A stretch of 33,473 bases of DNA from Reclinomonas americana ATCC 50394 (Eukaryota), in the NCBI GenBank assembly GCA_048213135.1, contig PS015773.1, forward strand, positions 1,588-35,060, given 5' to 3'. Below are positions 201 to 32,122 of this stretch, one piece after another. The translations under genes were made by a program, and so were the position numbers. Every line of letters begins with the position of its first letter. The first letter of the stretch is position 1. Under the pieces are notes generated by a model. It was given only the letters and a program-made list of their open reading frames with translations, was not told the DNA's origin and did no database searches.

Positions 201-2846
201 TGGCACCTGCGCAACAACAACAACAACAACAACAACAACAAACACCAGTGCAAACAGTACCATCAAAGTGCGTCCTCAACTGTGTCTGTGTGTGTGTGTG
301 AGCGCACGTTGTCACGTGTTGTTGACACATGCGCCACAGTTCATTACTCAAACAGTGGTTGGCGGTGTCTGCGAGATCAGAACGAGGTGTGTCACACAAT
401 CACTCTTTACTCACTCACTTTCTCCCTCACTCACTGCACATGTGGTCAGTGATGCGCAACCACAACTTGGCGCTGTTCCGCTTGCTGTCGACGCACGGAT
501 GTCTGTTGGACTCGCGATCGGCGACTCGACTGTCGCGAGTGGAGCACTATGCACAGGATGGCGACTGGGAGTCGGCGGTGCGCACCATCACCGACTGCAT
601 TCGCGATCGTAACGATGCGTGGTCGTTGTACGCACAGGTGTGTGTGAGGCTCTCCACGCCTCGTCACTCGGCTGTTCTCTCCCACTCACTCTGTGTGAGC
701 AGCGTGGTGTCTTGTATCGCTTGGCTGGCGACATGTCGATGAGCATTCGCGATGGGAAGCACGCGGTGCGTCTGTGTGCCGAGCCGACGGAGAGGGCGTT
801 GGCGTCGTGTGCGCTGGGCGAAACAGTTGCGTTGATTGGGAGGGGAGAGAGAGTGGCGCAGCGGCGCCATCTCACACGCATCGGTGCAGTACTTGGCCAG
901 CGGCGACGTGCAGCTGGCGCAGGAAGCGTTCACAAACTCCCTGAAGGACGATCCGGACTCGTGGTACGCGCTGACCGGGAGAGCAGAAGCGTACCTGGCA
1001 CAACAACTATTCAGTCAGGCGCTATTAGATCTCAACCGAGCGGCTGGTGGGGGGCACTACAACACATCAATCTCGTCTCCCACGTCTCACTCGTGGCACT
1101 CGCAGAGCTTGCTGGCGACGACGAAGAGAGCTGGCGCGTGCACGAACTACTTGGCCTGACGCACATGATGCTGGAGAGACCAATGGCGGCTGTGGATGCG
1201 CTGAATCGGTCGTTGGCACGCAATCCGGAGCACTTGGACGCGCGCAAGCTGCGTGGGTCGCTGTACGCGCGTCTCGGCCTCTTTTCTCTCGCCGTCAAGG
1301 ATCTCGATCTGGCGCTGGCCGTGGAGCCCGGCAATGTGGAGCTCATTCTGGCTCGCGGTCGGTGCGTGCACCTGCGTAATGGTTGACGGTGCAGTCCACG
1401 GCCTTCTCATTCGTCTTCGGTGTCATCGCGCAGTTCATATCTCGAGCTCGGGCAATACGAGGATGCGATTCGCGACTTTGAGAGTGTGGTGTTTCAGAAT
1501 CGCAGCAAGGGTTTGTGCATCACGCTGCTGCTCCACACTGCCCTTCAACTGTTTGACTCACTCTCTTTGTGTAGACACATCCGAAATCAGCGAACGCAAA
1601 ATACGACACCTGCAATATGCGTGCAACAATCTCGGCTACGCCTACGCCTGCCTCGGGGACTACGCACGCGCACTGGGCGTGCTGAACAAGTCCGTACAGT
1701 TGGATCCAAACGATGCCTCGGCGTACAGCAATCGCGCCTCGGTGCTCTTTGAGTCCGAGTCCTACGCCGGTATGTACACACACATAGACAAACACGCACT
1801 CAAGTATGGGCTTGCCAACTCACCACACGCCACTCCCGAACGCAGATAGTATTCCGGACTACGACCGCGCTCTGGAGCTCGACAACTCGCTGCACTTGGT
1901 GCGCCTGAACCGCGGCATCGCCCACATGATGACCGGCAACTACGTTGCCGCCGAACGTGACCTGTCTGCCGTGGCCGTGTCGCTGCCAGACAATGTCGAT
2001 GTGTACATTTCCCGCGGTACGATGTGGACGCTGACGCTGCGTGCACTGTCGGCGGAGAACGACCACTTTAGTGTGGCCGATGAAACACGCGACCTGGTCG
2101 GCAAGTCAGCCTCGCAGCCGCAGCAGAAACTGCTCCTGCTGGAGGCTGGTGATTCGCCATCATCATCATCATCGACGTCGTCAAGAGCTGCACACACGGC
2201 AGGTGGCACAGCGGCCACCACAGCCGCCGTGTTGGTGAATGCCGACCAGCCATCACCACAACAACAACAACAACACCAACCCGCACAATCCATACAGCAA
2301 CAACAACAACAACAACAGCAGGTGTCGGGCGTGGAGTCTGCCGTGGCGCCCAAGACGTACGCGCTGTACGAGCCGGGACCGGAGATGCACCCGGTGCGCA
2401 TCCGCACCATTCTGGAGGAGCTGGAGGAGCTCTTTAGGCGCAACAAATCGACCGACAAGCCGAACGAGGGTGACGTCGCAGCGTTGCCGTCATCGCCAGC
2501 ACCGTCCACTACACCGCCACCTCCCGCAGCCGAAGAGGAACAAGAAGAACCGGCGCGCCATCAGCCAGAAGTGATATACAATCGCTTCCTCAGCCGGCGC
2601 GAGTGCTTGCGGCGTGCTGTCGCCGACTTTGAGAAGGCGCTGCAATTGGATCCGTTCCGCGAGGAGCCCTACGATCATCTCATTACGTTGTGGCGCGAAG
2701 CCGGTCGCGACGACAAGGCGGCGCAGGTGCTGGCGCGCAAGGTTCGCGCCATGCTGCAGGCGCAAGCTTACGCACAACAGGAGCTGCAGCAGCTCCAACA
2801 GGAGGACGAGGAGGAGTGGCAGGCGAAGGGTAAGGCAGGCAGATGA
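201..2846 (+). CDS. Multi-exon tetratricopeptide-repeat (TPR) protein, probably 5'-partial
   Basis: Manual splicing across GT-AG introns (e.g. 268-339, 387-449, 638-702, and one starting at 826) gives serial TPR motifs: LGETYLASGDVQLAQEAFTNSLKDDP, LGLTHMMLERPMAAVDALNRSLARNP, NNLGYAYACLGDYARALGVLNKSVQLDP, AVADFEKALQLDP. Contains poly-Q/S insertions; stop TGA at 2844-2846. The exon at 201-267 joins in phase, so the true start may lie upstream of the window. Confidence 0.85.
212..241 (+). repeat. (CAA)n trinucleotide repeat, read as poly-Q in a TPR-gene exon
   Basis: About 10 consecutive CAA units; similar tracts occur at ~2258-2320. Confidence 0.9.
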
Positions 2847-2916
2847 GGTCGGCAGTCACTGTGTGAAGCGTGCACCACGTCGTGTCGAGTCATCTCCGAC
2901 AAGACTGTATATTTCA

Positions 2917-30666: not shown

Positions 30667-32004
30667 ATGGAAAGCTTTGCTGAGCGTGAGGAGGCACTGT
30701 TGAAGGCGATTTTCCGTGCACGAAAACAGAGTGCAAGTTGTGTGTGTGTGTCCACTGTGTGTGTTGCATCTGTGCTTTTCTCATTGTGGTGTTTCATGTG
30801 CAGAGGAGCGCATTCTTGCATCGGACGCGGTTCTGTTTGCACTGCGATGTTCCGCGAGTGTTGTTGATGAGCAAGAGGACGATAAAGAGGAAGAGGAGCA
30901 CAGCAGTGTGTTCATGTTATGCCTGCGTCTGAGCATGTCTGTCATCATCACTGATGATTGCTCACTGTTGACATTCTCTAGATCGCAATTGTTGAGTGTG
31001 TTGCAAAGCAGTGCTGTGTTGCGTGCAGTGGAGGAGCATGCAGCAACAGTGGTGCACGTGGAGGAGGAGGAGGAGGAGGAAAGCTTCGTTATGTTGCCTC
31101 CATCGCCATCACTGCAGATCGTTACCATGCCATCGCCGACGCGATGGATGCAGCAACAGTCGCCACTGATGAGTCGACGCGCAATGTCACCAGTGACCAC
31201 ACGGACTCCGTCGTCTCCGTGTGGTGTGGATCACAGTGGACTGTTGTTTTCGTTGTTTGCGGAGCGGCGGCAGCACGGCGAGAGTGTGTCGTTTGTGGAT
31301 CTCTTGCGCATGTGTCACACGTCGCAGTTGCTTGACAATCGGTTGACGGTGGTCGCGGTGGCGGAGATGGTGGAGCGAGTGACGGCGGAGCGGTGTCGTT
31401 GCGTTGCTTATGCGTGTGTGGAGCGCGATCGGAGGCTCACTGCTTCCGCGCAGCCATGAGTTTGTCGTATGAGCAGTTTCGGCAGGTGCTGGAGGAGATC
31501 TCGGTGTCCAAGTTGCGTCGCTGCACACGATGACGGCGATGATCGCTTCTGCTGCTTAGAGGACATGTATATCGCTGCAGGGATCGCAAAATGTCGGGTC
31601 ATGTCACGAGTCCGGTGTCGCTGGCGCGCATTGCCGACATGGTGGCCGGCGCGTCGCAGTCTCGTTCGCGTATCAACTCGCTTCTCATGCGACGGTTTGT
31701 GGTACTTGCAGACGGTGCGCACGCTTGCGCCAGCGTTCTCACGTGTCTGTGTGTGTGGCAGAAACGGGCCGGCGCAATCGCCCTCGTCTCCTTCTCCACC
31801 GCCACCACCTCCACGACCACAATCGCCTGCATCGCCACCGGCACGCACTCCGCCTCCGCAGCGTCTCCCGCTGAGTGAGCGCATCCGCCAGCGCGTTCAT
31901 CCACTCCAATCGTCGGCCGTGTCGGCGCGCTCCCCGCTGTCGGCCATGGCCAGCAGCATGCTGTCGTCCGGCACGATGCACTTGACCGATCTGGAGTCGT
32001 CGCT
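30667..32004 (+). CDS. Hypothetical protein with a p25-alpha/TPPP-like (EF-hand-like) domain and Ser/Pro-rich linkers, 3'-partial
   Basis: ATG at 30667 (MESFAEREEALLKAIFRARKQ..). The spliced segment LFSLFAERRQHGESVSFVDLLRMCHTSQLLDNRLTVVAVAEMVERVTAERCPMSLSYEQFRQVLEEISVSK resembles the p25-alpha pattern. The last visible donor is at 32005, before the N gap. Confidence 0.6.
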
Positions 32005-32122
32005 GTTGCGTACTCTCCTTCCGCTTTCGCTTCCACTTCTCTTCCTCCATCTCTTCCCTTCTCTCCCCCTTCTCTCTTCCCCTCCATCTTCCCCTTCTAT
32101 CCCCACTTCTCTCCCCCCTTCC

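Follow-up and report, generated by a model that had tools for sequence, protein, structure and literature searches.

The subject of this analysis is the 5' splice sites (donors) in a stretch of Reclinomonas americana ATCC 50394 DNA (GenBank assembly GCA_048213135.1, contig PS015773.1, positions 1,588 to 35,060 of the forward strand), and in particular an atypical class of donors that begin with GTTGCG. The whole stretch of 33,473 nucleotides (nt) is called the window below, and all positions are given within it. The window is gene-dense, has a G+C content of 56% and contains two N gaps (13537-13690 and 32123-32457). Genes were placed by Pfam scans on single open frames. Three intron-rich genes provide the donor counts:

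10824..16658, plus strand: UBA1 (E1 ubiquitin-activating enzyme), 22 aligned introns and the last one
17094..23312, minus strand: aligned part of a ZNFX1-like helicase, 18 aligned introns
27466..30613, minus strand: cathepsin C (dipeptidyl peptidase I), 24 aligned introns and the first one

Single exons of UBA1 match the Pfam families E1_FCCH, E1_4HB, ThiF and UBA_E1_SCCH, the helicase matches AAA_11, AAA_12, ZNFX1 and the RZ finger, and cathepsin C matches CathepsinC_exc as well as the exclusion domain in PDB entry 1k3b. The closest homologs of the window proteins are about 35-41% identical and belong to Gefionella, Heterolobosea sp. BB2, Spironema and Willaertia. Homologs of UBA1 were collected by an exhaustive HMMER search and those of cathepsin C and ZNFX1 by a word-indexed search, in which a UBA1-exon query for longer proteins found nothing.

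The introns were located with a purpose-written spliced aligner (protein profile to DNA) that charges the same penalty for every GT and a larger one for GC, restricts acceptors to YAG, and uses no donor information beyond GT/GC. The support of a site was expressed as the drop in alignment score when the chosen donor is forbidden. With this program the homolog profiles restore all three proteins via GT...YAG introns, with scores of 974 for UBA1 (15 homologs), 1460 for ZNFX1 (14 homologs) and 727 for cathepsin C (11 homologs). The alignments contain 64 introns, i.e. 22 in UBA1, 24 in cathepsin C and 18 in ZNFX1. One of these has a doubtful GC donor (20572-20420) and was excluded, and the donor census consists of the 63 homology-chosen GT donors. 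An ab initio parser based on coding potential recovered 16 of the 22 UBA1 introns but just 3 of the 24 cathepsin C introns and one of the 18 ZNFX1 introns, and was kept out of the census.

The cathepsin C junctions D/TPANC, YED/VRG, TN/H and ECAI/ES are gap-free with respect to the fetched homologs. The motifs TNHVV and DEC.IES are present in 11 of 11 homologs and NSWG in 10 of 11, while D-TPANC, with equal spacing to G.W, is found in each of the 5 homologs (of 11) with a recognisable TPANC motif. Three of these junctions (D/TPANC, ECAI/ES and TN-H) had been named in an earlier sequence-only reading of the window (the original prediction) as places where homology pins the donor, and the conserved motifs are indeed rejoined there. 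Judging from the alignments, the GTTGCG-type introns appear to be genuine U2-type GT-AG spliceosomal introns. U12-type introns have the donor consensus RTATCCTT, which is absent from the start of all 64 aligned introns. A family derived from introners or transposons was likewise rejected, as an all-against-all blastn comparison of the 64 introns gave low-complexity matches of 10-19 nt only (best E=2.5e-4).

The original prediction had listed 27 GTTGCG donors. The hexamer is present on the given strand at all 27 positions, and the preceding base is non-G in 26 of them, with 18715 as the sole exception. With respect to support, 13 of the 27 sites are pinned, one is supported by a conserved motif, eight are frame-supported and five are merely compatible with a donor. 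The pinned sites, chosen by the homology-only alignment, are distributed over UBA1 (4), ZNFX1 (3) and cathepsin C (6):

11722..11728, plus strand, UBA1: GTTGCGT, intron 11722-11791, score drop 4.7
12129..12135, plus strand, UBA1: GTTGCGT, intron 12129-12203, score drop 17.0
13123..13129, plus strand, UBA1: GTTGCGT, intron 13123-13204, score drop 14.0; the next-best in-phase donor adds 4 residues
14675..14681, plus strand, UBA1: GTTGCGT, intron 14675-14739, score drop just 0.3; junction flanked by Pfam SCCH profile positions 51 and 53
18040..18046, minus strand, ZNFX1: GTTGCGT, intron 18046-17978, score drop 17.0
18709..18715, minus strand, ZNFX1: GTTGCGT, intron 18715-18648, score drop 17.0; G at -1
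20051..20057, minus strand, ZNFX1: GTTGCGT, intron 20057-19995, score drop 17.0
27554..27560, minus strand, cathepsin C: GTTGCGC, intron 27560-27499, score drop 8.4; ECAI/ES matches DEC.IES in 11 of 11 homologs
28182..28188, minus strand, cathepsin C: GTTGCGC, intron 28188-28126, score drop 4.0; TN/H matches TNHVV in 11 of 11 homologs
29311..29317, minus strand, cathepsin C: GTTGCGT, intron 29317-29245, score drop 17.0
29521..29527, minus strand, cathepsin C: GTTGCGT, intron 29527-29465, score drop 17.0
30307..30313, minus strand, cathepsin C: GTTGCGC, intron 30313-30250, score drop 4.5
30445..30451, minus strand, cathepsin C: GTTGCGT, intron 30451-30392, score drop 15.0; YED/VRGTW spacing the same as in the 5 homologs with the TPANC motif

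GTTGCG is thus a real donor and a major one, as had been claimed, accounting for 13 of the 63 homology-chosen GT donors (21%). The background level is far lower: 22 of the 1296 sense GT sites are GTTGCG (binomial P=4.6e-11 against the chosen donors), and so are 3 of the 888 antisense GT sites of the three genes. This argues against the objection, raised together with the original claim, that the hexamer might be no more frequent at donors than composition predicts. On both strands of the window there are 55 copies, where first- and second-order Markov models predict 35.3 and 37.4, respectively. In other words, the raw excess is a modest 1.5-fold, and the signal is the location of the copies.

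The same alignments bear on the question of whether the boundaries are misplaced, i.e. whether the introns start elsewhere, for instance as GTT|GCGT introns of the GC-AG type that keep a Val codon, or whether some of the listed sites are no introns. If GT is forbidden, the aligner does fall back on the GC three bases downstream at 20057, 18715, 18046, 29527, 29317 and 12129, and four of the listed introns are in frame and stop-free. However, the GC fallback costs 17 units each time and adds a residue that is absent from the homologs, and for this reason the downstream GC was rejected as the donor. Moreover, the D-V-R spacing in YEDVRGTW, as well as TNH and ECAIES, is gap-free with the GT donor. 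We therefore regard misplaced boundaries as very improbable. As a separate observation, each GTTGCG donor has an in-phase GC 3 bases downstream (e.g. 20054, 18712, 18043, 29524, 29314, 12132). Provided that GC donors are used in this organism, it could act as an alternative donor at +3 and lengthen the protein by one Val.

The census resolves into two classes. The ordinary class, defined by G at +5, comprises 38 of the 63 donors (GTGCGT, GTGAGT, GTGTGT, GTTTGT, GTTCGT and others). The offset class, defined by T at +3 and G at +6 without G at +5, comprises 19 (30%), namely GTTGCG (13), GTTTCGT (3), GTTGTGT (1), GTTCTGT (1) and GTTGAGT (1). The equation of the class with GTTGCG therefore needs to be modified: the hexamer is a real donor, but it is merely the commonest member under a broader rule, H|GTTNNGT. 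The other members, all homology-chosen, are:

30151..30157, minus strand, cathepsin C: GTTTCGT, not among the 27 listed sites, score drop 7.1, T at -1
28501..28507, minus strand, cathepsin C: GTTTCGT, score drop 21.0, C at -1
20948..20954, minus strand, ZNFX1: GTTTCGT, score drop 14.7, A at -1
29679..29685, minus strand, cathepsin C: GTTGTGT, score drop 4.8, A at -1
21483..21489, minus strand, ZNFX1: GTTCTGT, score drop just 3.0, T at -1
28008..28014, minus strand, cathepsin C: GTTGAGT, offset motif with G at -1, score drop 10.9, taken jointly with the neighbouring introns

The offset donor looks as if it had been moved by one base, as the original prediction held: +6 G and +7 T (the latter in 16 of 19) replace the +5 G and +6 T of the ordinary class, +3 is always T, and the first G of the intron stands in the place that the exon G at -1 has in the ordinary class. 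The base before the cut separates the two classes sharply. G stands at -1 in 36 of 38 ordinary donors, in agreement with the earlier remark that GTGAGT, GTGCGT and GTGTGT follow G, and in 2 of 19 offset donors (Fisher P=1.9e-10). With stricter classes, in which +6 T or +7 T is required, the proportions are 30/31 and 2/16 (P=5e-9). Seen from the other side, all 17 donors with non-G at -1 and G at +6 have T at +3. Relative to the sense-strand GT sites, the ordinary class accounts for 30/63 donors versus 3.9% of the sites (P=1e-25), and the offset class for 14/63 versus 2.2% (P=7e-11). Ordinary G|GTNNGT and offset H|GTTNNGT fit a single heptamer, G-[G/T]-T-N-N-G-T, with the cut before the first GT, and GTTTCGT is related to GTTCGT in the same way as GTTGCGT is to GTGCGT. 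The counts demonstrate that the sites are donors and that both the two-class rule and the dependence on -1 hold; the finding is real and, as a pattern, stronger than originally stated.

The introns of the two classes are otherwise alike. Their median lengths are 70 and 68 nt (70 nt for the three genes together), with no difference between the classes, and they agree in acceptor and phase. CAG ends 50 of 57 introns and TAG the rest, under a YAG filter that is at odds with at least one likely intron ending in AAG (7215-7283). Motifs similar to CTCAC, CTGAC or CTAAC, possible branch sites, are visible within 45 nt of the 3' end in most introns. We also note that the exon-side signals (the CAG acceptor and the G before the ordinary donor) are unusually strict for an intron-rich genome.

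The pattern could in principle arise with no shift at all. In such a case the 5' splice site would be degenerate, non-G exons would be compensated by U6, U5 loop 1, Prp8 or U1C, and the likeness between the classes would be a by-product of GT/GC-rich introns. The introns are in fact rich in such repeats (GTGTGT occurs 233 times in the window versus 79 expected), the raw GTTGCG excess is small, and the offset class has a C requirement of its own at +5 that the ordinary class lacks. Composition, on the other hand, cannot explain the strand bias of GTTGCG (22 sense versus 3 antisense copies), its presence at homology-defined exon ends, the constant association of +3 T with +6 G, or the split at -1. 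We consider this explanation improbable.

The most likely reading of the offset class, to which we would give about even chances, is a one-base-offset pairing with U1 or U6; the reading RNA and its register are what we infer. According to this scheme, one surface of a small nuclear RNA (snRNA), i.e. the 5' end of U1 and later the ACAGAGA box of U6, would bind the invariant G..U..GU in a single register, and in both classes the heptamer would be cut ahead of its first GU. The G at +1 of an offset donor would take the slot of the ordinary exon G at -1 and pair with C9 of U1, and the mismatch between the U at +2 and C8 would be tolerated. No better explanation is available for the offset class, and this one rests on sequence statistics from three genes.

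Several points weigh against offset pairing. Every count comes from three genes in one 33-kb window, and the set includes doubtful aligned introns (11256-11368, 15238-15308, 22420-22298, 17560-17397 and the already excluded 20572-20420 with its GC donor). One of these affects a listed site directly, as at 17464 the alignment took GTGGAG at 17560 instead, by a margin of just 0.3. Six of the 63 donors belong to neither class, and two donors with the offset motif (18715 and 28014) follow G. The depletion of G at -1 of offset donors, 2/19 versus 6.3 expected from the codon-position background, reaches just P=0.024 in this unbiased set. The two classes also differ in the base before the conserved G, which is C in 16/19 offset versus 13/38 ordinary donors (P=6e-4); GC stands before the conserved G (+4/+5) in 13/19 versus 9/38. 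Moreover, GTTGAGT is rare (1) though GTGAGT is common (9), as common as GTGCGT. The view of the offset donor as an ordinary donor plus one T thus stands as far as the likeness of register is concerned, but it had missed this preference for C. Finally, U6 would need to fit the extra base too, which is not known to happen; on this point, PMC4856993 indicates that U6 does not have to repeat the diversity of registers seen at U1.

The preference for C might be a compensation for a weaker helix, which predicts a G opposite in the pairing RNA. From the C before the conserved G, U1 of this organism would probably carry G at the opposite position and have a 5' end near ACGCACC. Nearest-neighbour duplex models, calculated for 32 hypothetical U1 5' ends, agree with such a G, but it has to be counted against the offset scheme that the energies refer to invented U1 sequences. 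The mean values (kcal/mol) for the main forms were:

Canonical U1, AUACUUACCUG (from PMC4856993): ordinary -7.1, offset -1.2
U1 with G opposite +4 (ACGUAC, the Mastigamoeba form): ordinary -8.2, offset -4.2
U1 with ..ACGCACC.. (best overall of the 32): ordinary -9.2, offset -5.8
U1 with C8 changed to A (best for the offset class): ordinary -5.8, offset -9.3

With the G-containing model U1, the minimum-energy form is the shifted register (+3 U paired with A7) in 11 of the 19 offset donors, versus 5 of 19 in which G at +1 pairs with C8. The latter pairing is the one expected if, instead of a shift, a U is bulged: G+1 to C8 and U+2 to A7 would pair as usual, U+2 or U+3 would bulge out, and the helix would resume from G+4 to U+7, so that the cut needs no special rule. 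GUUGCGU is indeed GUGCGU with one additional U, human cells are known to use a register with the bulge at +3 (or +2) (PMC4856993), and the two offset donors with G at -1 do occur. Nevertheless, a bulge leaves C9 free, so G at -1 should be favoured, and it is found below expectation. A similar deficit is seen at -2 of the ordinary donors, where G occurs in 5/38 versus 10.3 expected (P=0.03). Low G on the 5' side of the heptamer in both classes would fit a shift better than a bulge. The data thus seem to lean to a shift, with small numbers, and a bulged U appears possible though doubtful.

The energies also speak to a third arrangement with two U1 snRNAs, in which a paralogue with A in place of C8 (..ACGCAAC..) would serve the offset class and a standard U1 the ordinary one. 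Among the modelled ends this change gives the best offset duplexes and weakens the ordinary ones, and the offset class is very uniform (13/19 are GUUGCG), which is what a U1 dedicated to it and pairing perfectly would lead one to expect. Lineage-specific U1 5' ends are on record in Entamoeba and Mastigamoeba (10.1101/2022.06.08.495308), but these precedents replace the single U1 and add no second one. Furthermore, members such as GUUUCGU, GUUGUGU and GUUCUGU vary in the same way as the ordinary donors, for which a single flexible U1 is the simpler explanation. We hold two U1 snRNAs to be unlikely. An extended version of the idea, which is speculative and just as unlikely, is that the major spliceosome has two hard-wired registers: a second U1 (C8 to A, near ACGCAAC) would read H|GUUGCGU, the last base of the exon would select the U1 and hence the cut, and introns could thereby have colonised non-G sites, contributing to their extreme density.

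Offset pairing, if correct, would extend a known and normally rare phenomenon, i.e. the shifted register. In human cells, the shifted register and registers with a bulge at +3 or +2 are validated exceptions, as described in PMC4856993 (the shifted register with reference to Roca & Krainer 2009). The human shifted (+1) sites and the offset donors have in common that they lack G at +5 and carry G at +6; the pairs are moved by one position and the cut is still at GU, so in the human sites the position of the cut is decoupled from the register of binding. The difference is that the human sites are rare and were proven by suppressor U1s, whereas here the class makes up about 30% of the donors (19/63) and is known from sequence alone; a fixed U at +3, C at +5 and a near-absolute non-G exon base are also particular to this set. 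The bulge registers (Roca et al. 2012, cited in PMC4856993) resemble the present case in that a GUU-type donor is a good donor plus U, but they predict no avoidance of G at -1, such as is seen here.

Atypical donors have co-evolved with the 5' end of U1 in Entamoeba (AACAAAC) and in Mastigamoeba balamuthi, where U1 has ACGUAC and the donors are GUGCGC (Roy & Bowser, 10.1101/2022.06.08.495308). Mastigamoeba is similar to our case in that the donor consensus is specific to the lineage and has C at +4, and G opposite +4 is predicted here for U1. Both precedents, however, involve one consensus and one register, while two registers would coexist in R. americana. The same text reports GTGCGY donors in Mamiellales and +4C donors in Thecamonas trahens, both with standard U1; these resemble our ordinary class (GTGCGT, GTGAGT, GTNNGT), but in its available part no offset GTTGCGT class is described for them.

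The presence of a second, distinct donor consensus within one genome recalls the U12-type introns. The offset introns, in contrast, match the ordinary ones in length, acceptor and, as far as they are visible, branch-like motifs.

A full-text literature search for GTTGCG-type donor motifs found no report among the papers listed, with subscription journals outside its coverage. In the literature on the shifted U1 register and protists, no genome-wide offset class was seen in titles and the beginnings of abstracts, most subscription journals again being outside coverage.

If the rule holds genome-wide, there would be thousands of natural cases in which the place of binding and the cut are one base apart, an uncoupling that human cells show at rare sites only. 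The handover from the U1 register to U6, U5 and Prp8 would then be testable by comparative genomics and simple reporters. The prediction for the 5' end of U1 is G opposite +4, possibly together with a C8-to-A paralogue. There are also consequences for annotation: a gene finder that relies on a single donor matrix, or demands G at +5, would miss about 30% of the donors (19/63 in the three aligned genes) and would assign wrong frames to most genes of the genome.

The snRNAs themselves were looked for in the window with Rfam. At gathering thresholds there were no matches, and at E<=1 there were microRNA look-alikes from repeats and one weak match to a small Cajal body-specific RNA, but no snRNA. 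The spurious microRNA-family matches are due to GT and CT repeat tracts; CTCTCT occurs 143 times versus 43 expected. Long (GT)n runs and CT- or C-rich tracts lie inside introns and adjoin both N gaps (13340-13440, 13860-13895, 26940-27050, 32010-32122).

The remaining listed GTTGCG sites lie partly in the three genes described above and partly in their neighbours, among which the following were recognised:

about 613-2850, plus strand: TPR-repeat gene (Pfam)
5389-6472, minus strand: Arf-family GTPase gene (PF00025, E=8e-43)
6922-7634, plus strand: small BART-like gene with ATG at 6922 (PF11527, E=0.01, last exon only, below the Pfam cut-off)
plus strand: EMC8/UPF0172 gene, one exon of which matches PF03665 positions 159-191 (Pfam)

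The sites and their support are as follows (f0, f1 and f2 denote reading frames):

826..832, plus strand, TPR-repeat gene: GTTGCGT, A at -1; intron 826-889 takes frame f0 to the TPR frame f1
6978..6984, plus strand, BART-like gene: GTTGCGT, C at -1; putative 87-nt intron
7114..7120, plus strand, BART-like gene: GTTGCGT, A at -1; putative 72-nt in-frame intron ending in CAG
7215..7221, plus strand, BART-like gene: GTTGCGC, A at -1; putative 69-nt intron ending in AAG
7465..7471, plus strand, BART-like gene: GTTGCGT; change from f1 to f0 required before the last exon
8914..8920, minus strand: GTTGCGC, putative donor after a signal-peptide-like exon, weak support; in-frame, stop-free intron
16484..16490, plus strand, UBA1: GTTGCGT, last intron 16484-16561; in-frame stop after the donor
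17458..17464, minus strand, ZNFX1: GTTGCGT, intron 17464-17397, frame-consistent, 68 nt
24997..25003, minus strand: GTTGCGA, intron 25003-24927; change from f2 to f1 needed, with a stop and an ACTAAC branch-like motif inside
27101..27107, plus strand, EMC8/UPF0172 gene: GTTGCGT, intron 27101-27159; change from f2 to f1 needed to reach the PF03665 exon
30529..30535, minus strand, cathepsin C: GTTGCGT, first intron 30535-30479; its removal brings TPANC next to the D that ends a signal peptide
31398..31404, plus strand, unnamed gene: GTTGCGT, intron 31398-31453; frame change required
31512..31518, plus strand, unnamed gene: GTTGCGT, intron 31512-31580; in-frame stops within the 69-nt intron
32005..32011, plus strand: GTTGCGT, putative donor; CT-rich tract downstream, then N gap from 32123

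A frame-preserving intron is required at 826, 7465, 17464, 25003, 27101, 31398 and 31512. An alternative in-phase GT is present for 17464, for 27101 (at 27086) and for 16484 (at 16472). The listed donor at 16484 was the one picked by a coding-potential model for which cathepsin C and ZNFX1 had served as the training set. The putative introns at 6978, 7114, 7215 and 8920 are in frame and stop-free, hence the frame does not prove them; the intron at 30535 is also in frame, so the case for it comes from homology. No acceptor is visible for 32005 because of the N gap.

The Arf-family GTPase gene and the gene resembling BART (the ARL2-binding protein) are arranged head to head, and it is possible that they form a GTPase/partner pair with a common promoter region. 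A PDB search with the 261-residue open frame of the BART-like gene returned designed repeat proteins only, which leaves ARL2BP unsupported by that route. This 261-codon frame (6835-7617, plus strand) runs open across the three putative introns of 87, 72 and 69 nt, so that transcripts retaining the introns would still be translatable.

The intron density of cathepsin C is extreme, with 24 aligned introns and the first one in 1368 nt of aligned coding sequence and exon lengths of 2-147 nt. The genome of Andalucia godoyi is intron-poor (PMC7050145), and A. godoyi was rejected as the source of the window for this reason. In cathepsin C, on the minus strand, three exons of just 3, 2 and 2 nt (28123-28125, 27853-27854 and 27762-27763) appear to be required; nested or abutting introns would be an equally good description. 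In TN-H-VV, the codon of the catalytic His draws its second and third bases from the 3-nt exon, ATG, and the two GG exons give the end of Trp and the Gly of N-S-W-G-T. All three exons lie between a CAG acceptor and a G|GT donor.

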